Virus record (IMG/VR): IMGVR_UViG_3300018475_000095
DNA: 64,000 nucleotides
Origin: a virus
Lineage: Duplodnaviria > Heunggongvirae > Uroviricota > Caudoviricetes
Strand: one strand, 5' to 3'
A model generated the notes under the pieces. That model ran no database searches. It was given only the letters and a program-made list of their open reading frames with translations, and had not been told where the DNA came from. Position numbers and translations under genes: made by a program. Each line of letters opens with the position of its first letter. Positions within the stretch are counted from its first letter, which is position 1. This document shows positions 7,380-63,833 of the stretch, one piece after another.

Positions 7380-8249
7380 TTACTCCTTTAACCCATGCGC
7401 TTCATCTAAATCTAATTTATCTTCTTCGAAGAATTCTTCACTATCATAAATTTTTGCTAACTCATCTTTATATCTTGTTAAATGATTTTCAATGGTATCT
7501 TTTATATTGTTAGATATTATTACTTTATCATATCCTTCTTTATAGCCCTTATCATCTAGCATACTTATTTTCTTTCTTAATATAGATACTTTTTTATCTA
7601 ATTCAGCTGTTTCATTTAGAGATTCTTCTGCTACTTCTTCGATTGTATCTAAGATAACCTTAGTGTGACTTATACTATTATATTGTCTATCAATCGCTAT
7701 ACCTAAAAGTTTACCTCTTATATAACCATCTTCATATTCAATTTCAACAGTTTTATTTATAAAAGGACTTAAAGCCTTTATTAATTCAGTATTTTGTTCT
7801 TGATAATCTTCATCATAACCTCAGTAATCTGAGTGATAATTAAATTTTTCAGCTTCATTGACTGTTTTAATTAGTTTATAATAATGATCTACTTCACTAA
7901 GGGATGAAACATCTAATTCTTCTACTTCTTTATTGCCGTATGTACTATCGAATATTAAATAAGATATATCTTCTATTTCCTCGTTAGATTCTTTTAATGA
8001 TTCATCTATATCATTTTCTTTTATATTTTCAATATCTTGAGCTAAGTATTCTAACGGCTGTATTAGATCATTTCTAATATATGTAGCTAATTCTTTATAA
8101 GTAGTTGCTTTAGTATATGCGCCTCTTATAGTATTTCTTATCTCATAGATAAAACTATTCATGTCATCTAATACATTTAAATCAACATCATAGTTATCTT
8201 CTAACTCCCACCCGTCGTTAATATCTTCTAATAATTTTTTAAATTGCAT
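7380..8249 (-). CDS. hypothetical protein with one in-frame TGA (7821-7823), probably read as Trp
   Basis: Track ORFs 7821..8249 and 7380..7562 are in the same frame. The 258 nt between them are open (verified codon by codon), so a single TGA separates two open halves. Confidence 0.55.
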
Positions 8250-9617: not shown

Positions 9618-11342
9618 TTAATAATGCATACCTTCTTCAGGGTCTTCATCCATAACTTCGTGAGGTATTTCATTTAATATATCAGAAGCTTCTGCTTCTC
9701 CGTCTTCTATAGTCTGGGTATTAGGAGATATTGTGCTTAAAGAAGTTTCAAGCATGCCTACATGGTTCATTTCTTCATTAACTATATCTTTAAATACTTT
9801 TGCAATATCATGATAACCTTCTAATTCTGCTGCTACTATAGCATCATTATAATCTTGAATTGCGTCTCATTCTTCTTTAATTAGTTTAGTTAATTCAGCT
9901 GCTAATCCTGCTTCTGGACCTGGTTGAATTGAATCTGGTGTTATTTCACCCCCATCCTCGATAGTAGTTCCATCAGTATAATCTTCTTTTAATTCTTGTT
10001 CTAATTCTGCAGCTTCAATTCTGTCACCGAGAGAACCTTCTTCTCTTTCTTTAACCATTTTTTTAATAGTCTCTTCTCTCGCTCTTTCTTCTGCCGCTTT
10101 TTGTTCATCTTCAAAAGATTCTTCTAACTTGCCACCATTTCTCCAAGTTAAATAAACTGTATCATATGGGATTTTAAAAGCTTTAGATATAATTTCAAAT
10201 ATGCCTTCTCTTACTGCGCTATCGAAGCCTTCTCCATCTTCTGAAGCTATTCTATAAAAATCTTCTCCTGATTGCATTTCTGACCATATATCAGCGATAG
10301 TTTTTGTTGGGTGTATTTTATCTAATTGAAATTCTTCTGGGGATATTTCTGCGTAAACTTCTTTTATTTTTCTTTCAGGTCTAATATCAAATTGAGCATA
10401 GAAGTCTTCAAAAGATTCTTTAACTATCTCAGTATCTTCTAACAATCTGATACCTTTTCTAATATCTTCATTTTCAGTTGGTCTTACAGAAGTTATTTCA
10501 ATATCTTTATCGGGTTTCTCATCTAAGAATTTCTCTTTAGCTTCTTTTTCATTAGAAGCTTTAACTCTTACTGCACCATATCCACCATATTCAAATCCCT
10601 CTCTATTATAATGAATAGTAAATTCTTTTTCTAAATTATTAATATCTTCTTTAATAATTTCTTTTTCTTTAAACCCCAAATCTTTTAAAACTTGTTTAGC
10701 ATATGTTGGATTTGTTTTGCTTTGCTTAACTATTTTATCACCATCATATATTACGATAGTTCCATCATCTTTTATATCAAAAGACATTTCTTTGCCGGCT
10801 GCGCCAGAAGTGCTATATATTTCTTCTTCTAAGCTTTCAGTGTCTATATAAAGAGAAGGTATACCTAATGTTGATTTAACATAATACTTAAAGCCATACT
10901 TATCTACGATTGCTTTAGCATCATCAAGATCTTTTTCATCTTTTATAAATTCGTATGATTTATCTTTTCTACTAAGTTGTATCTGACCTTCAGGTTGTCT
11001 CTTTCCTATCCTATAGCCAATTGGATCTGCGTTAACTAGATATTTAGCTTTACGTAATTCATCATATAAATCATCTAATATATCTTCTTTAGTTTTCTCT
11101 TTCTTTTCATCTAAAATATCTTCAAACAAACTTTCATCTAAATGCATTTTCTTTGCACCACTAACCATTTTAGGATTTTTTGGTTTTTCATCATGTTTAG
11201 GTTCTGCTTGTATTTTAGTGAACTCTGCTTTCTTTTTTTCTGCTTTTTCTATATCTCTGATAGCAGCTGCATAAGTTTGATCAACTTCACCATGATCTTC
11301 TTTCTCTACTGGAGCAAGTCCTATATTTTCATTCAATATCAT
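9618..11342 (-). CDS. acidic hypothetical protein with in-frame TGA (9867-9869)
   Basis: Track ORF 9867..11342 continues after the TGA for 82 more sense codons to a TAA at 9618-9620 (verified). Confidence 0.5.
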
Positions 11343-18276: not shown

Positions 18277-18402
18277 TTAATATTTTACTAAAATAATCGC
18301 AACTAAAAAAAATAATAATGTCGCTATAAGAATTAGTAACCCTTCTATCATAATTAATTCCTTTTTAAAAATTTTATATCTTTTTATAAACCTTTCAATC
18401 AT
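18277..18402 (-). CDS. small hydrophobic peptide (41 aa)
   Basis: ATGA overlap with the upstream stop; single TM helix; below track cutoff. Confidence 0.3.
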   Translation of the reverse strand: MIERFIKRYKIFKKELIMIEGLLILIATLLFFLVAIILVKY

Positions 18403-41172: not shown

Positions 41173-41475
41173 TTAAATTAAATTAGAATCTTCATATTTA
41201 ATATTTAAAAAACTTTCTTTATAATCATCTACAGATTGCAAAGAATCAATTTCTACATATCTCTTGACTGCCTCCTCTTCATTTATTTTATCCAAGAAAA
41301 TCACATTAGTATCTAAATCTATCTGTAATACTTCTCTTTTTAATAATCCAGAAGGCAAATATTTAATTTCATAAATTAATACCTCATCTAATGTTTCTAT
41401 TCTATCTTCTACTCTAGCTTGCAATTTAAATTTCACGCTACCTCTAAGAAGTCTTTCTAAATCTTTTAATTTCAT
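41173..41475 (-). CDS. hypothetical protein
   Basis: 100-aa ORF. Confidence 0.5.
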   Translation of the reverse strand: MKLKDLERLLRGSVKFKLQARVEDRIETLDEVLIYEIKYLPSGLLKREVLQIDLDTNVIFLDKINEEEAVKRYVEIDSLQSVDDYKESFLNIKYEDSNLI

Positions 41476-41636
41476 TTACTCACCTCTATTTTAGATACAG
41501 TAATAATTTGGCAATATGGATAATCTTGTTTAAATTTAATACAAGCTTCTTTCTTACTGTTGGATTCATATTTTTTATTAAAACTTAGTAAACCTGTATT
41601 AATATCTATAAAAGATATTATGTATTGTTTTTTCAT
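41472..41636 (-). CDS. small ORF (54 aa)
   Basis: ATGA overlaps at both ends with the flanking genes. Confidence 0.35.
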   Translation of the reverse strand: MKKQYIISFIDINTGLLSFNKKYESNSKKEACIKFKQDYPYCQIITVSKIEVSK

Positions 41637-43361: not shown

Positions 43362-43619
43362 TTATCTCACCTTAATTTTTTTCTTATTTAATATTTGTGA
43401 ATTGCTATAAACTAAATAATTTGTTAAAGGTTCGCCTTGCCAGCCAGAAAAGCCTTGATATATAATTCCATCTTTTCCAAATATTTCAAATATAGCATCA
43501 TAAGCTTCATCAGTATATTTATTTTGTACATTAAACAATATTTCACTAATAATATCATTATCACTATTGTTATATGCAAATAAAGATTCTACACAATTAT
43601 TTAAAACATTTTCATAACC
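43362..43619 (-). pseudogene. start-less in-frame continuation downstream of the ART-like gene, possibly a decayed C-terminal domain
   Basis: Eighty-five-codon open frame in phase with the upstream gene across its TAA, with no ATG. It ends 2 nt before the nrdG ATG. Confidence 0.3.
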
Positions 43620-43934
43620 TTAATCTTCATACCAACCATAGTTAGATAAATAATCTTTTCCAATAGGATCTACATATTTTCTAATATAATTTTTAACTTG
43701 ATTTTTAGCTATAGTTATACTGTCATCTCAAAATGGTTTTCTAATTAATAAATCTGCTTCTATAACATAATCACCATAACTTTTAGCTTGATTAATTTCG
43801 TCTGTAAAGTAAAAGCCAAATCCATGCCCTAATGCATGAGCTCCAATGAATTGCTGCTCAAATCTGTCGAATTCTGCATTAGATCCATGATATGCGTGGT
43901 ATAAATTATTAATCTCTTCCTTTAAAAATTTCAT
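43620..43934 (-). CDS. small H-Y-E-class ADP-ribosyltransferase-like protein with in-frame TGA (43728-43730)
   Basis: AYHGSNAEF and GHGFGFYFTDE resemble the PARP HGS and GKGIYFAD motifs. After the TGA, 35 more sense codons run to a TAA (verified). Confidence 0.45.
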
Positions 43935-44016
43935 TACGTCTCCTAAATAAATATCTTATACTTATTCCACCTATACCGTTTCCTAAAACTATAATTAATA
44001 ATCTTAATAATACCTC

Positions 44017-44493
44017 TCAAGAATATATAAAAGTAAAATTAAAGTAAAACATGTCTGCAATACAGTGTTCTAATCCTATAACTACAAAGATAATAACTCC
44101 AAAGAAAAGAGATAAAATACCTCTTATATCTTTGAACTTATTGTATCCTTCTACCGCTATATAAATTAATATGTTACATAAAATTCCGAGTATAAATAAA
44201 CTTATATAGGAATCACTTAATTTGATTTCACATATTGCATTTGCATACTCTATTAGATTAATTAACCGTGTAGCTCTACACATTAAAGCTAGTAATAATG
44301 TTCCTATAAAATTACCAAGTAAAGTTATAACTACTTCTAAATAATTTTTCTTTTCTATAACATAACAAATCTTACCTGTGAATAAATTTAATTTAAAAGT
44401 AAGTATAACAAATAATCCTACAGTAAATAAGAAAGCACCCACTATTTTATCAGGAGATGATAGATAGGCTAAACAGCCTATCCCTATAAACAT
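44017..44493 (-). CDS. polytopic membrane protein
   Basis: Four or five TM helices. Confidence 0.5.
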   Translation of the reverse strand: MFIGIGCLAYLSSPDKIVGAFLFTVGLFVILTFKLNLFTGKICYVIEKKNYLEVVITLLGNFIGTLLLALMCRATRLINLIEYANAICEIKLSDSYISLFILGILCNILIYIAVEGYNKFKDIRGILSLFFGVIIFVVIGLEHCIADMFYFNFTFIYS

Positions 44494-44530: not shown

Positions 44531-47500
44531 TTATTCAATAGGAACTCCTGTGTGTTTGACTCTATCTTCTACTTCCGCTATCTTACCTTCATTAAAATTA
44601 TGATAATCTGTAGAAACATATCCTGTAACTCTTCTTAATCTTTCAATATTATCTGAACCACATTCTGGACATTTATCATTCATTTCTTCTTGATGTCCGC
44701 AGTCCATACAAACATCATTTGGTACGTTTATAGCAAAGTAAGGTATATCTTTATCCATAGCATAATTAACTAATTTTTCAATAGCTTCTATATTATGAAT
44801 TGAAGATGAATCTAATTCTACATAAGTAATACACCCAGCTGAAGAATAACCTGTTAATTGACTTTCAATATCTATTTTATCAAAAGCATTTATGTTATGG
44901 TATACTGGAACATGCATTGAATTAGTAAAATATTTTCTATCAGATATATTTGGAATAATACCATATTTTTCTTTAAATTTAGTCATAGCAGTTTTACATA
45001 AAGATTCTGCAGGAGTATAATAAACACCAAAATTTAATTTATATTGTTCTTTAAAATAAGCACATTTATCTTTAAATAATTGTTCTATCTTTTTAGCAAG
45101 TTCCATACCTTCTTTTGTAGTATGGTCTTTTCCAATTAATATTTGTAAACATTCAGCAAGACCTAATTGACCTATAACTAATGTTCCATGTTTTAAAGCA
45201 CTCCTAATTCCTTCTTCTGGAATATAACCAGCCATTGTGTTATTTTCATACATAAATGGGGCTGATTTAGGTGATTGGCTACAGATATGCTCAAATCTTT
45301 CTATCAAAGAGTCTTTTGCTTCATTTATTTTACATTCAAGTAATCTCATAAATACATCTATATCTGATTCTTCTGAAGCTCTTGTACATTCTTTAGATTT
45401 CATTGCTATTGTTGGTAATATAATAGTAGTAGGTGCAATATTTCCTCTACCATCTTTTTGTTGTTTTAAACCATTAATATCCCAACCATTTGCAGTTCTA
45501 CAGTTATGCATTATAATATCTGAACCTATAAATGAACCAGTTTCAGTACCTATATCGTAGCTATCAACTGCTTCCCAATGCCAACATATATCAGTTATTT
45601 CTAACTCTAAATTATCAGCTCTATAAAGTTTATCACCTATTTTTAATTGATCTGCTCTTGTAAATTTATCTCCTGTCCATAGAGGGTGATCTTCAGTACA
45701 AGACAAACAATATTCTTTATCGTATTCTTTGTAATAGATATGCATCATATACGGAGTATTTAATTTATCATTTTTAAAGATATGTTTGATCTTTACCCAT
45801 TTATTATCTCTATCTAATACTTTAATATCAAATTCAGATAAATCAATCAATTCTTGTTTTTTACTCAAATCAACTTTAAATACAGGTCTATCATATACTC
45901 TATGCCTAGATTTTTGAGTAATTAACTTATAATATTTCTTATCTGTTCCTCTAGGATTTATATTTGCATTCTTTTGAATATAAAGGTTTTCAGCTTCTTT
46001 ATAATCTTCAGTTATTTCTAATACTTTAAATTCATAATTAGCTGTATCAATATCCCCAAAATTTATTCCTGCATCAATCCCACCTGTTTTGCCTATAGCA
46101 CATTTATGCTCAGCGCATCTTCTAGAAATAGAACTTGAACTTCCAATATATGTGACATCTTCTGGTAAATAAGTTATTGAATAAACACCTGGTAGATTAG
46201 GTAATCCAGATTTTTCTTGATAATGTCTACCTAAAGGCTCTTCATTTAATTTTTCTCTGTTATACCAAATCTGTGTTTTCTTATAATTTTGTAAATCATC
46301 TGTTTTACAATAATCAAATAAGTCTCTGATAGATAAGTCAATAGGTTCTTCATTTCCTATTTTAACTGTTAGATGTTCATGACCACTCAAAGCACCCATT
46401 GTACTAAAATATGTTTTTGGATCATTTACATCGTAACCTGCATTACCACTCCAATCAACTGAGGCATAATTTGGATACAATCTCTTTGAAGTTGATTTTA
46501 ATGCTAACTTAAATAAGTCATAATTTGGATCGCCCGGTTTTCTGTTAACACCTTTCATGCACTGGAATATACCACAAGGGAATATACTTGTTCTATGATA
46601 TTTTCCTAAACCTTCAATAGATACATTTAACAATTCTTCTGTTATCATTCTACCTTCTGGTAAAGTGCAAGTTCCATAATTTATAGAGCTAAATGGTAGT
46701 TGTTGTCCACTTCTTGATTGTAATGAATTTAAATTGTGATATAATGCTTCAACTGCTTGATGTGTTTCTTTTTCAGTTTGTCTCATAGCATATTCATAAG
46801 CATCTTGATTTAGTTTATATTTTTCGTCAATTATAGAAGTTTCTTTTGTAATTCCTTCTAAATACTTTTCATTACCGAACCAATATAATCCTTCTTTATA
46901 ATGTTTATAAAAACTCTTTCTTACATAAGGGACCATTGACCAATCAAAGTGAGTATATGATACACCACCAAATTGACATAAACTTTGTAATTGCATTATA
47001 ACAGCTGACAATTGCATCGCTGTATTTACTGTTCCAGCAGGTCTTATATCTGTCTGTTTAACTTTAAATCCTTTTGCTAATAAATCATCTAAAGGAATTG
47101 ATAAACAATTATGCATACCACTTGCATAAGCATCTAAATCATGTATATAAATTTCATTATTAATATGATTATTTCTAGTAGTTTCTGATACTAAATTATT
47201 AAGTGCATATTCTTTTAATATAGTTCCAAATGCTTCTTTCTCTCTTCCACTGAAAGTATTTTCATCTAGGTTTGCATTTGAATTTTCTACATTCTTTGCT
47301 TCTAGTTTAGCTTTAACTTTATTCATTAGTTCAGTATAACTATTTCTAGCTAGTTTATGTAATTGTCTATATTCTATGTATGCTTTTGCTTGTTCATATT
47401 TATTAGCTTCCATCAAAGTTAGTTCTACAATATCTTGAATTTGTTCTACAGTATAATTTTTTCTTTTATCTAATTGTTGTGTTACTTTATTTGTTAATTC

Positions 47501-47626
47501 TGTTATCACACCATCATTAACATACTCACCTTTAGGACAACAATCTTCAAAACAACCTAATATTGCTTTCCATATTTTATACTCATCAAATTTTTGCTTT
47601 GATCCATCTCGTTTTATAATTTGCAT
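44531..47626 (-). CDS. nrdD: anaerobic ribonucleoside-triphosphate reductase, interrupted by an intein-like insertion
   Basis: Class III RNR; C-terminal CMDCGHQ...CPECGS zinc ribbon plus glycyl-radical RVTGYVS. At 1031 aa it is far longer than typical NrdD. Confidence 0.9.
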   Translation of the reverse strand: MQIIKRDGSKQKFDEYKIWKAILGCFEDCCPKGEYVNDGVITELTNKVTQQLDKRKNYTVEQIQDIVELTLMEANKYEQAKAYIEYRQLHKLARNSYTELMNKVKAKLEAKNVENSNANLDENTFSGREKEAFGTILKEYALNNLVSETTRNNHINNEIYIHDLDAYASGMHNCLSIPLDDLLAKGFKVKQTDIRPAGTVNTAMQLSAVIMQLQSLCQFGGVSYTHFDWSMVPYVRKSFYKHYKEGLYWFGNEKYLEGITKETSIIDEKYKLNQDAYEYAMRQTEKETHQAVEALYHNLNSLQSRSGQQLPFSSINYGTCTLPEGRMITEELLNVSIEGLGKYHRTSIFPCGIFQCMKGVNRKPGDPNYDLFKLALKSTSKRLYPNYASVDWSGNAGYDVNDPKTYFSTMGALSGHEHLTVKIGNEEPIDLSIRDLFDYCKTDDLQNYKKTQIWYNREKLNEEPLGRHYQEKSGLPNLPGVYSITYLPEDVTYIGSSSSISRRCAEHKCAIGKTGGIDAGINFGDIDTANYEFKVLEITEDYKEAENLYIQKNANINPRGTDKKYYKLITQKSRHRVYDRPVFKVDLSKKQELIDLSEFDIKVLDRDNKWVKIKHIFKNDKLNTPYMMHIYYKEYDKEYCLSCTEDHPLWTGDKFTRADQLKIGDKLYRADNLELEITDICWHWEAVDSYDIGTETGSFIGSDIIMHNCRTANGWDINGLKQQKDGRGNIAPTTIILPTIAMKSKECTRASEESDIDVFMRLLECKINEAKDSLIERFEHICSQSPKSAPFMYENNTMAGYIPEEGIRSALKHGTLVIGQLGLAECLQILIGKDHTTKEGMELAKKIEQLFKDKCAYFKEQYKLNFGVYYTPAESLCKTAMTKFKEKYGIIPNISDRKYFTNSMHVPVYHNINAFDKIDIESQLTGYSSAGCITYVELDSSSIHNIEAIEKLVNYAMDKDIPYFAINVPNDVCMDCGHQEEMNDKCPECGSDNIERLRRVTGYVSTDYHNFNEGKIAEVEDRVKHTGVPIE
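45506..46396 (-). mobile_element. intein-like (Hint) element within nrdD carrying a GIY-YIG endonuclease domain
   Basis: Block-A-like ALSGHEHLTVKIG...IRDL, GIY-YIG core GVYSITYL...YIGSS...R...EH, block-B-like TEDHPLWT, and block F/G SYDIGTETGSFIGSDIIMHN followed by Cys. Confidence 0.55.
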
Positions 47627-47720: not shown

Positions 47721-48212
47721 TTATATCTTATAATTCTCGTATAATATACCAGAACTATAATATCTTTTTATCTTTTTTATAATATCTTCTGGTAAAATAT
47801 CTTTTGTATTAAAATACTTACCAGCTTTTCTATCTCCTCTAATACCTATTCATATAATAGGATATTTAGTCAGCCAATTTTCTAACGTATCTAGTTGAGA
47901 ATAAGTAGGTAATTTCGTAGGTAATTCTATGTAAGGATCTGAATCTGTTAATACTCCATCATTTACTCTTATGCAATTAAAATCGTCTATAAGAATAAGT
48001 TTGTCTAGTTCGAATGGTGAAGTCTCTATTAAATTATTATCATAAAGAAAATCATCTACTCACATGTGAGATCCTTCCTCTATATTTAAATATTCACCAT
48101 CCTTCAGTATATAAGCAGCCCCACCAAAATAACCAAAGCTTATTTGATTATCAAATAAATTTAAAATTTCTTGATATAAAGCTATGTTTGAATTTTCTCT
48201 TAAAAATCTCAT
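47721..48212 (-). pseudogene. degenerate or frameshifted gene with an additional in-frame TGA at 47850-47852
   Basis: ATG 48212 gives 53 codons then TGA. Downstream coding potential moves between frames, and the final 105-codon open frame contains one TGA. Confidence 0.35.
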
Positions 48213-48895: not shown

Positions 48896-49483
48896 TTACT
48901 GTAAAGTTTCAAAAGTATTTACACTCAGTTCATGACAAACTCGTATCTCATAATCAGTTTCTGTTAATCTCTTTTTATACTCTCTCGATTGTAATTGACC
49001 TTGAATTAAAATCTTGTCCCCAACATTTAATTTATTTAATGCCTTAGCACACTTCCCTCATGCAACACAAGGTAAATATACATTTAATACTTGCCCATTA
49101 TTTTCTATATTGTTTGCTAATATAAAATCTAAAACATCTTTTCCAGATGATGTTTTTCTTAAATTATTCTTTTTACATATTCTACCATCTATGTATGCGA
49201 GATTATTAGGACTTTCTTCTGCTTCATCAAAATAAGTAAATACAAATAATTCTACTTTATTTCTATCTTCTTCTTGTCTATTAAAAGTTCTAATATTACC
49301 TAGAATAGATATTTCTTGATTTTCTTTATATGGGTTTGAAAACTTTTTAAATTTTAAATTTATAATATCTTCTTTTCCATTTTCTCTTCTAGTTATTAGA
49401 TTAGCTTTATAAAATTCTATATCTTGTATATAATGAGAATATTCTATATTTTTTATTATTCCATTTAATTGTATCTTGTTCAT
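48896..49483 (-). CDS. ssb: single-stranded DNA-binding protein with in-frame TGA at 49058-49060
   Basis: The N-terminal OB half is track ORF 49058..49483. After the TGA the frame continues GKCAKALNKLNVGDKILIQGQLQSREYKKR...TDYEIRV to TAA 48896. The TGA sits at the conserved CV(T/A)W Trp position of SSB. Confidence 0.75.
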
Positions 49484-52087: not shown

Positions 52088-52630
52088 TTATAAGTATTTA
52101 GTTGACACTAGTTCTACTAATATATCATACAAACTTGTTCCTCTAAAATCATTCTCTCTTGATAAGATATATCCAAAATCATATTCAAATAATTCTATAT
52201 AACCATCAGCAGCTTCTATGTCTATCTCTTCTTCTTTACCTTTTGGAATAAATACTAACGGATACATAAAAGGTTCAATGGTTTCATTTACTAACTCTTT
52301 ATTATAATAACCATCTAAACCTATTTCAATATAGTTATCAATAGCGCCAAAAGTTTCTATGAAATCTTTTTGACTTTCATAATAACCTTTCTTATAAGCA
52401 TCTATTATTAAATCTCTATGTATTATATCATATGAATTACCTATCATATACTTATCTATTCTAGCATCATATAATATTCTATATAAATCTGGGTTATTTA
52501 TCAAAATATCTTTTATATTGTATTCACTTAAATTTAGTTTGCTGCTACTTAAAGATTCTTCTAATCTCTCTTTAACTTTTATTTGATTAGAATTAAATAC
52601 TATTTTTTCTTTAATCAACCAATCGACCAT
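52088..52630 (-). CDS. hypothetical protein
   Basis: 180-aa ORF. Confidence 0.5.
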   Translation of the reverse strand: MVDWLIKEKIVFNSNQIKVKERLEESLSSSKLNLSEYNIKDILINNPDLYRILYDARIDKYMIGNSYDIIHRDLIIDAYKKGYYESQKDFIETFGAIDNYIEIGLDGYYNKELVNETIEPFMYPLVFIPKGKEEEIDIEAADGYIELFEYDFGYILSRENDFRGTSLYDILVELVSTKYL

Positions 52631-53355
52631 CCTGCATTTAAATACTTGTCTAAGTATTCTTTAGGTACTCGAGTATTTTTGGTGCCATCATTAATACCAA
52701 TAGTCCCTCTTAATTTATCTGCTCGTTTTTTCTTTGTTTCTTCTGACTGGGTAATACACCCCTTCAAACCTTTATTCCAAGGTATCTGACCTTTATGTGA
52801 GTCACTCATACGCTTTCTCTGTAATTCAGTTGCTTTATGCCCTAAATGATTAGTGTTACCTTTACTCCGTTCTCTACATTTCTCACAATACTCTGCTGAC
52901 ATTTTCTTGCCTTTATTCCAAGGTACTTGATTTAAATGTGCTAGTCTTTGTTTCTCACGAGTTTCATCTGATACATCATAAGTTTCTCTACTAGCCAAGC
53001 GTTTAGCTATCCATTCCTTTGATTGGGTCTTGCCAGAGTTTGTATCCCCACCATCTCCACCCGATGCCATATTGTAACAAAACTCTTTGCCAAATGAGTC
53101 TCTATAAAACTTTATTCAATAAATCTCTTTCTTATTTAACTCTTCTATAGTAGAGGCAGTGTCAATTGTCTCGACACCGAAATTACACTTACCATATTTA
53201 TTAATTGCCTCATAAAGTAATGATAGATTTCTATGTTCTTGAGCATATATTTCAGATGCTTTTAAGTGTTGGTTATATCTGGTCTCAACACTTTTAGTTG
53301 TCTTCCCAATGTATACTTTCCCATTTGAGTTGTTGGTTATTTTATAGATATACAT
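52615..53355 (-). CDS. GIY-YIG homing endonuclease with NUMOD3 DNA-binding repeats, one in-frame TGA (53116-53118)
   Basis: N-terminal IYKITNNSNGKVYIGKT...R...H catalytic domain (track ORF 53116..53355). After the TGA, 15 sense codons lead in frame into track ORF 52615..53070, which carries PWNKGxK NUMOD3 repeats (verified). Confidence 0.7.
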
Positions 53356-53666: not shown

Positions 53667-54053
53667 TTAGCAGGATTTGATAGAATATTTATCGATTATA
53701 TCCAATAAAGCATTTTTGTAGTTTGAACAGCTTTCTGCTCCCTTTCTTCTCTTTTCTTTCAATTCTTCATCAGATAATGAAGCTCGATATGTTTTAGAAT
53801 CTAGCTTACTTCTCTCTAAGTACTCTTTATATCTTGCCTCTGAACTGCATCTGTAGACATGACATTTAGATATATTAAAAGCTTTTGCTATATCTTCATT
53901 AGTGATTTCAAGTTCTTTTTTGTTACTACATAAATATATAATTTGCTCCCTGTCTTCTTTTGATAGTTTACTTCTTCTGTCAAATTGCGTACCTTTTATT
54001 TTCAAGCTATTGAGTTCTTTTTGTTTTCTAACCATTATTATTACTTCCTTCAT
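53667..54053 (-). CDS. helix-turn-helix DNA-binding protein
   Basis: ITNEDIAKAFNISKCHVYR HTH-like segment. Confidence 0.5.
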   Translation of the reverse strand: MKEVIIMVRKQKELNSLKIKGTQFDRRSKLSKEDREQIIYLCSNKKELEITNEDIAKAFNISKCHVYRCSSEARYKEYLERSKLDSKTYRASLSDEELKEKRRKGAESCSNYKNALLDIIDKYSIKSC

Positions 54054-57331: not shown

Positions 57332-57425
57332 CAGGGGTTGCAGGAATCGAACCCGCGCTATAGGTTTTGGAGACCTATTGTTACGGTTTTGAAGACCGCT
57401 TGACTTCCAATTATCGTACACCCCT
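57332..57425 (-). tRNA. tRNA-Trp-like opal suppressor, anticodon UCA, with a second CCA-anticodon-like hairpin in the variable region
   Basis: Hand-folded from AGGGGTG (A1:U72, G73). D-loop AATTGGAA. Anticodon arm GCGGT-CTTCAAA-ACCGT. A 26-nt variable arm contains ATAGGT-CTCCAAA-ACCTAT. T-arm GCGGG-TTCGATT-CCTGC. No encoded CCA. Confidence 0.6.
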
Positions 57426-63759: not shown

Positions 63760-63833
63760 TGGCTCCCCGGGTCCGATTCGAACGGACGGCCTATCGGTTA
63801 ACAGCCGAGTGCTCCACCGCTGAGCTATTGAGG
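63760..63833 (-). tRNA. tRNA-Asn (GUU)-like gene with a non-complementary 3' acceptor strand (possible pseudo or chimeric tRNA)
   Basis: Positions 1-65 are canonical: GCCTCAA-TA-GCTC...loop CTGTTAA...GTCCG-TTCGAAT-CGGAC. Positions 66-72 read CCGGGGA, which cannot pair with GCCTCAA. Confidence 0.4.

Follow-up and report, generated by a model that had tools for sequence, protein, structure and literature searches.

The 64,000-nucleotide stretch of the IMG/VR virus record IMGVR_UViG_3300018475_000095 (Caudoviricetes; the whole stretch is referred to here as the window) carries on its minus strand a GIY-YIG/NUMOD3 gene whose reading frame is interrupted by a TGA codon. The evidence assembled here indicates that this gene is probably an intact, free-standing homing endonuclease of the I-TevI/Seg-like type, belonging to a phage of approximately 154 kb in which TGA is used as a rare tryptophan codon. 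A single minus-strand frame of 246 sense codons runs from 53355 to 52615. As had been stated in the initial annotation of this locus, it contains the motifs PWNKGKK and IPWNKGLK and is broken only by the TGA at 53116-53118; the alternative products, put there at 79 and about 245 amino acids, would be 79 and 246 amino acids long. The gene and its parts are the following.

52615-53355, minus strand: GIY-YIG/NUMOD3 homing endonuclease gene, 246 sense codons with codon 80, a TGA, taken as Trp
53116-53118, minus strand: in-frame TGA, codon 80, in the context KEIY-TGA-IKFY, at a conserved Trp column
53056-53355, minus strand: GIY-YIG catalytic domain, residues 1 to about 100, with the TGA inside it (Pfam, alignment and model)
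52762-52923, minus strand: DNA-binding region with two NUMOD3 repeats (Pfam, two stretches)
52903-52923, minus strand: PWNKGKK repeat
52762-52785, minus strand: IPWNKGLK repeat
52600-52617, minus strand: gene end, with TGA at 52615-52617, LKKK codons and a back-up TAG at 52600-52602

Among 29 homologues (25-42% identity) the column of the TGA holds Trp in 22 cases, Tyr in three, Phe in two and Ala in two. The codon lies three residues past the nearly invariant Glu77, in the motif E-I-Y-[W]-I, and 15 codons ahead of an invariant Tyr-Asn pair, and all of the conserved GIY-YIG residues are present in the nuclease (Y4, Y15, G17, R26, H30, E77, Y94 and N95). When the translation with Trp substituted at codon 80 was run against Pfam, a GIY-YIG match was obtained over residues 1-86, across codon 80 (30.3 bits, cut-off 22.6), together with a NUMOD3 match in two stretches (30.3 bits, cut-off 20.4), while PHROG 314, annotated as 'homing endonuclease', covers residues 2-235 in a single stretch. 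An AlphaFold model computed from the homologue alignment has predicted local distance difference test (pLDDT) values of 93-98 over residues 1-100 and much lower values beyond, and Foldseek aligned 97-98 columns with the complete I-TevI catalytic domain (1LN0/1MK0) at a target-normalised template modelling (TM) score of 0.73-0.76. Further downstream, residues 152-195 match the I-TevI DNA-binding domain 1I3J (phmmer, E=0.002), and the segment between the two NUMOD3 repeats is I-TevI-like (YCEKCRERSKGN...). According to the alignment and the model, the TGA is placed inside the compact catalytic fold and not at a domain boundary, in disagreement with the initial annotation, in which it had been taken to separate the catalytic domain from the DNA-binding repeats. 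Because the catalytic domain extends past the TGA, the 79-amino-acid product would be an incomplete catalytic domain; it had been described as a catalytic domain lacking DNA targeting, a description at odds with the location of the invariant Y94-N95, and of G93, G99 and G100, downstream of the TGA in the alignment.

Past the TGA the frame stays open for 167 codons, an outcome with a probability of about 5e-8 as judged from composition; on the non-coding strand of the window, the mean length of runs without a stop is 13.6 codons and the longest has 150. Moreover, the gene including its TGA is 100% identical in six other loci (L001-L004, L024 and L025), which correspond to five assembly records (four samples) of the same phage that are 99.94-99.98% identical to the window, and the TGA is therefore not an assembly error. 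The same phage has been assembled repeatedly, at 154.3-154.4 kb (ENA ERZ27248457, ERZ27248446 and ERZ27248351; JGI 3300018878, 3300024268 and 3300018494). As a side observation, transversions, chiefly C/G, make up most of the single-base changes that distinguish the window from the other assemblies, an unusual spectrum.

Degeneration after fixation is common among homing endonuclease genes, and it may be asked whether the TGA is simply a TGG-to-TGA nonsense mutation that inactivated the nuclease, with read-through being irrelevant. A single G-to-A transition would suffice for this, and the window does contain a damaged gene of another family: the ART-PolyVal-family gene at 43362-43934 (minus strand), which is intact and encodes 190 amino acids in three other assemblies, carries in the window two nonsense codons without counterpart in those assemblies, namely a TGA at 43728-43730 (TCA elsewhere) and a TAA at 43620-43622 (GAA elsewhere). 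In the nuclease, however, there is one lesion only, the conserved residues are intact even beyond it, including Y94 and N95, and the long open frame downstream is likewise contrary to decay. In addition, the lesion falls exactly at the Trp column, as also occurs in an SSB-like gene of this phage, and a Trp-type tRNA(UCA) is present (both are described below). Decay into a pseudogene is thus very unlikely.

Another alternative is that two proteins are made, a 79-amino-acid N-terminal peptide and a 151-amino-acid NUMOD3 protein initiated at Met96 (ATG at 53070). Public pipelines using the standard code (code 11) split the nuclease into exactly these two calls, and the ATG at codon 96 is preceded, 13 nt upstream, by the purine-rich AAAGAG. 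Nevertheless, as a Shine-Dalgarno-like element the latter is weak and badly spaced when compared with the GGGGA and GAGG of neighbouring genes, the stretch of 15 codons from the TGA to Met96 keeps the frame and encodes the invariant G93, Y94 and N95, and neither the fold model nor the Pfam and PHROG matches are broken at the gap. It is thus hardly credible that the gene functions as two separate cistrons, and the reading as one nuclease with Trp at codon 80 is retained in what follows.

With respect to its genomic context, the ATG of the nuclease overlaps the TAA of the upstream open reading frame (ORF; TAATG at 53355), and its 3' end overlaps the ATG of the downstream ORF (52630). No family match was found for either of these neighbouring ORFs. 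Rfam searches revealed no group I intron around the nuclease, and no intron family was detected at E<=1 within 51.5-54.5 kb. Since there is no such intron and the ORF abuts both neighbours, the gene is considered to be free-standing and Seg-like. The genome has a G+C content of 28% and nearly all genes of the window are on the minus strand; two genes upstream of the nuclease, a 128-amino-acid protein (53667-54053, minus strand) shows weak helix-turn-helix matches (HTH_23 and HTH_7, E of about 1e-3). A megablast search of phage records for close relatives lacking the nuclease, which would inform on mobility and target site, returned nothing, and no IMG/VR relative was found for the gene downstream of the nuclease. 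Relatives of the DUF2828 gene were found only at 47% identity or less, and the only copies of the nuclease locus that were found are near-identical and all carry the nuclease.

The nuclease shares with I-TevI, encoded in the td intron of phage T4 (1LN0, 1MK0 and 1I3J), the catalytic fold, the TM scores given above applying to the whole 92-97-residue domain, as well as the GIY, YIG, Arg, Glu and Asn motif residues and the combination of an N-terminal nuclease with an extended DNA-binding region, with sequence similarity over a portion of the DNA-binding domain. In contrast to I-TevI, it is free-standing and not intron-encoded, it carries a pair of NUMOD3 repeats, the zinc-finger Cys pattern is only half present (YCEKC), the identity amounts to only 24-26%, and one of its Trp codons is TGA. 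It resembles the Seg-type enzymes of T4-like phages (SegA-G) in being a stand-alone GIY-YIG gene wedged into a large phage genome, with start and stop codons that overlap those of the genes on either side. The presumed role of Seg enzymes is marker exclusion and homing between co-infecting relatives. The gene described here differs from SegA-G in its requirement for UGA decoding, and no target site or nuclease-less relative was found for it. By analogy with the T4 Seg enzymes, the nuclease would presumably cut nuclease-less alleles in co-infecting relatives.

The use of TGA as a sense codon is not confined to the nuclease. The minus-strand genes of at least 60 codons comprise 18,213 codons, among which there are 180 TGG and 7-8 internal TGAs, the latter in six genes, so that TGA represents approximately 4-5% of Trp codons. 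When genes are read with code 4, the terminators are TAA in 68 cases, TAG in 15 and TGA in none, so that termination at TGA is not required in any gene. The phage is lightly recoded from TGA to Trp, and the TGA of the nuclease is not gene-specific. The nonsense TGA of the ART-PolyVal gene was left out of this census, as it is TCA in other assemblies and the same gene has the window-specific TAA. The other genes with internal TGAs are the following.

48896-49483, minus strand: SSB-like gene with in-frame TGA at 49058-49060, codon 142, in the context CVA-TGA-GK
43909-44493 or further upstream, minus strand: formate/nitrite-transporter gene with in-frame TGA at 44017-44019
47721-48212, minus strand: ORF of unknown function, 163 codons, with TGAs at 48060-48062 and 47850-47852
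9618-11342, minus strand: ferritin/rubrerythrin-like gene with in-frame TGA at 9867-9869, in the context KEE-TGA-DAIQDY
7380-8249, minus strand: ORF of unknown function, 289 codons, with in-frame TGA at 7821-7823, flanked by 142 and 146 codons

In the SSB-like gene the Pfam SSB match (residues 97-184) crosses the TGA, which aligns with Trp in the best PDB match, 5ODP, and with Phe in two others. In the transporter, the match to the Pfam family Form_Nir_trans (240 profile positions) extends from position 17 to position 233 and includes the TGA, which precedes the conserved GNxxGG helix; the first TGA of this gene corresponds to Tyr in one PDB match and the second lies in a variable region where the PDB alignments are uninformative. 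The TGA of the ferritin/rubrerythrin-like gene links a 491-codon acidic protein to a C-terminal domain of that type, with Pfam Ferritin and Rubrerythrin matches that cross it, although the site is in a variable region and the PDB alignments are uninformative on the amino acid. Both TGAs of the ORF at 47721-48212 are identical in the other assemblies. The TGAs seen fall in accessory or replication-type genes, and the 10 kb flanking the window on either side, which bring the part examined to 84 kb of the approximately 154 kb genome, hold almost no additional ones, the large genes of the left 10 kb having none.

The presumed decoder of these codons is a tRNA gene located 4 kb upstream of the nuclease and on the same strand, apart from the main tRNA array (60.7-63.6 kb) in which the normal tRNA-Trp(CCA) sits.

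57332-57425, minus strand: tRNA with anticodon UCA, presumed TGA decoder (ARAGORN and Rfam)

This tRNA(UCA) matches the general tRNA model of Rfam over its full length (38 bits, gathering score 29) and folds as a 7/5 cloverleaf with a D stem of 3-4 bp. Its acceptor stem (A1-U72, G2-C71, G3-C70, G4-C69 and G5-C68) and discriminator G73 are those described as the determinants of E. coli and B. subtilis tRNA-Trp (PMC9976931). The variable region, of 26 nt, forms a hairpin (AUAGGU-CUCCAAA-ACCUAU) whose loop is the anticodon loop of tRNA-Trp, and the whole resembles a tRNA-Trp in which the anticodon arm has been duplicated in tandem and the first copy has mutated to UCA. When a pattern requiring both arms was searched, 12 other IMG/VR phage contigs were obtained; in nine of these a tRNA-Trp(CCA) gene is found no more than 130 nt from the tRNA(UCA), and in a tenth the distance is 256 nt. 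In pairwise comparisons for 10 contigs and the window the tRNA(UCA) is 67-84% identical to the co-resident tRNA-Trp(CCA). Compensatory changes among the 13 copies back all five helices, 97.7% of cells being paired and both partners having changed in 11 pairs; such values were not attained in any of 500 shuffles, and sliding the partners by 1-3 columns left only 35-49% paired. With a relaxed pattern, in which only the UCA arm and the T loop were fixed, the variable region was long in 90 of the phage loci obtained and of normal, short length in 24 (the loci with tRNA(UCA) patterns are L011-L022 and L027-L104). A hairpin with a CCA-containing loop is present in at least 39 of the 67 distinct long variable regions, the commonest loops being CUCCAAA (13), GUCCAAA (12) and UUCCAAC (3), and the stems differ widely. 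In several of the phage contigs that carry such a tRNA, ORF length increases considerably when code 4 is applied. In species-representative genomes the pattern was found once, in a contig of a 'Bacilli bacterium' metagenome-assembled genome, which is too weak to name a host.

It is known that tryptophanyl-tRNA synthetase (TrpRS) uses the anticodon as a main identity element. In this regard, it can be tentatively suggested, as a possibility that we regard as rather less than even, that the TGA-bearing genes depend on a class of tRNA-Trp-derived opal decoders in which the CCA-loop copy in the variable arm (N-U-C-C-A-A-N) serves as an anticodon mimic for the TrpRS of a standard-code host. No description of a CCA-loop extra arm in opal suppressor tRNAs was found in the searchable literature, although this absence is not proof of novelty. 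If this proposal is true, the takeover of a stop codon by such phages would rest on a built-in identity decoy, and if the extra arm is an identity handle for TrpRS it would explain UGA reassignment in hosts whose synthetase reads the anticodon, while also representing a natural design for orthogonal opal suppressors. Among the elements described here, the tRNA(UCA) with its Trp-anticodon-like extra arm is the more unusual item, and it recurs in dozens of phage tRNA(UCA) genes.

The structure of this tRNA also bears on the possibility that UGA is read as selenocysteine or, should seryl-tRNA synthetase (SerRS) recognise the long extra arm and G73, as serine. ARAGORN labels the tRNA(UCA) as tRNA-SeC, and a long variable arm and G73 are features shared with tRNA-Ser and tRNA-Sec (PMC5389517). 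Against this, the cloverleaf is 7/5 with a D stem of 3-4 bp and not 8/5 with a D stem of 6 bp, the best Rfam match within the clan is the general tRNA family, the acceptor stem carries the Trp identity set with an A1-U72 pair that is not the pattern of tRNA-Ser, and the TGAs align with Trp or other aromatic residues and not with Cys or Ser. No hairpin resembling a selenocysteine insertion sequence (SECIS), nor any other read-through-stimulating RNA structure, was detected 3' of the nuclease TGA (z=+0.31). Selenocysteine was rejected as a candidate on the basis of the 7/5 cloverleaf, the lack of a SECIS and the Trp column, and serine, inserted by virtue of the long arm, is an unlikely alternative in view of the Trp or aromatic residues in the aligned columns; taken together, a reading of UGA as either of these amino acids is highly improbable.

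Further observations concern the tRNA complement of these phages. Genes for tmRNA are present in other phage contigs with tRNA(UCA) (L013, L015, L020 and L021), and a tRNA(CUA), the expected reader of TAG, is additionally encoded in two contigs (L018 and L019). In the window, a partial Rfam tRNA-like match at 63771-63827 on the minus strand (41.6 bits, model positions 8-63), without an ARAGORN call, could represent a shortened or otherwise unusual tRNA bordering the array.

The view of an intact nuclease in a TGA-recoded phage has to be weighed against several observations that run counter to it. Among about 87 genes there are at most four for which TGA could be the terminator, and in each of them a TAA or TAG follows as a back-up 1-5 codons further on; the candidate terminal TGAs are listed here.

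18399-18401: candidate terminal TGA with back-up stop
41633-41635: candidate terminal TGA with back-up stop
41472-41474: candidate terminal TGA with back-up stop
52615-52617: candidate terminal TGA with back-up stop, in the nuclease gene

The occurrence of a TGA 1-5 codons before TAA or TAG in four genes, the nuclease among them, has a probability of about 0.01 by composition, and in one of these genes the TGA takes part in an ATGA stop-start overlap (41633-41636). TGA may thus still partly act as a stop, in which case expression of the nuclease would be leaky and regulation possible. In addition, no recognisable head, tail or lysis module was found in the 84 kb examined, where a phrog_562 'tail' gene and an LRR_5 gene are among the few that may be structural, and the long extra arm and G73 of the tRNA(UCA) could in principle draw SerRS. 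As an observation in its own right, the back-up stops suggest partial read-through with back-ups being maintained; in the nuclease, read-through of the terminal TGA would append WLKKK.

As regards the mechanism, the host TrpRS would charge the tRNA(UCA) with Trp and the charged tRNA would compete with release factor 2 at UGA, so that the yield of the 246-amino-acid nuclease would equal the efficiency of read-through. Nuclease output thus probably depends on the supply of suppressor. Termination at codon 80 would leave the 79-amino-acid fragment without helix 3 and the essential Asn95, and because of what is known of I-TevI, and because the last helix and this Asn are missing, the fragment would be expected to be an inert and harmless by-product. 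The TGA itself most likely represents a tolerated TGG-to-TGA change that would have occurred under AT mutation pressure once the suppressor tRNA was already present; dependence on the tRNA would thus be a genome-wide property and not a device evolved for the nuclease.

The opposite view, which in essence corresponds to the self-limiting control of a selfish element put forward in the initial annotation, is that of adaptive gating, according to which the TGA is kept by selection and the nuclease is made only after the suppressor tRNA has accumulated, thereby limiting early or excess cutting. A part of this proposal stands, since full-length nuclease requires decoding of UGA at codon 80 and a tRNA(UCA) is present. 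The temporal component, on the other hand, is not visible in the sequence, because the nuclease and the tRNA gene upstream of it share a strand and a gene block, with no predicted terminator between them; no terminators were predicted between 52 and 58 kb, and promoter-like sites are no commoner there than in shuffled sequence. The TGA is fixed across assemblies, although these are so nearly identical that fixation says little about selection. Nor is a control specific to the nuclease borne out: at least five other genes of the window, including non-selfish ones, have internal TGAs, three of them inside Pfam domains, the nuclease is not enriched in TGA (one of its five Trp codons, against a background of 7 TGA to 176 TGG; Fisher p=0.20), and a second GIY-YIG element, located in an intein-like insertion of NrdD (see below), has no TGA. 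Selective gating is consequently regarded as unlikely. It is moreover a hypothesis that is already known, as Borges et al. propose the same for a homing endonuclease ('group I intron') family of the Agate phages, which was reported to prefer TGA for Trp and in which the stops were proposed to delay production (10.1101/2021.08.26.457843).

The Agate phages, which have a mean genome size of 154±27 kb and derive from cattle, pig and giant-tortoise samples, use TGA for Trp with a suppressor tRNA (10.1101/2021.08.26.457843). The phage described here resembles them in genome size, in reading TGA as Trp, in the suppressor tRNA and in a nuclease with an in-frame TGA, the comparison being one by description, with the terminase outside the window. 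It differs from the Agate family in that the endonuclease is intron-borne and TGA preferred in the latter, whereas here the nuclease is free-standing and one in five of its Trp codons is TGA. With the present case, TGA-recoded phages are seen to include a free-standing homing endonuclease besides the intron-borne one already published, and dependence on UGA decoding is neither nuclease-specific nor new. The published route to recoding involves depletion of a stop codon, followed by gain of a suppressor tRNA and accumulation of in-frame stops (10.1101/2021.08.26.457843). With about 5% of its Trp codons being TGA, the phage appears to be at a light stage of recoding, which fits the published scenario, with the suppressor tRNA preceding the build-up of in-frame stops.

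A comparison may also be drawn with organisms using code 4 (Mycoplasma and Spiroplasma) and their phages, which likewise read TGA as Trp by means of a tRNA-Trp(UCA). In Mycoplasma and Spiroplasma TGA is the dominant Trp codon, and a phage of a code-4 host at 28% G+C would be expected to favour TGA over TGG. In the present phage, by contrast, TGG makes up approximately 95% of Trp codons at this G+C content and the tRNA(UCA) is brought by the phage itself, which suggests that the host uses the standard code.

From a practical point of view, gene calling with the standard code fragments the nuclease and at least five other genes of this phage; the 79- and 151-amino-acid calls should be merged and the genome annotated with TGA as Trp.

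Two other elements of this genome are worth recording. The gene for the anaerobic ribonucleotide reductase NrdD (44531-47626, minus strand; 1031 amino acids) contains an in-frame, intein-like insertion of 297 amino acids (approximately 45503-46393) at the conserved 'MG|CR' site. The first residue of the insertion is Ala, a TxxH-like block (CTEDH) is included in it, and its terminal HN is followed by Cys. Inteins usually carry LAGLIDADG or HNH nucleases; this insertion holds a GIY-YIG domain (GVYSITY...VTYIG; Pfam 25.2 bits, cut-off 22.6) without an in-frame TGA. Beyond the left end of the window, at a distance of approximately 9.3-10 kb, a reverse-transcriptase gene (RVT_1; L023 12149-12806) follows a run of large genes of 385-544 amino acids, one of them with a faint LRR_5 match, and may be part of a diversity-generating retroelement beside tail-fibre-like genes.

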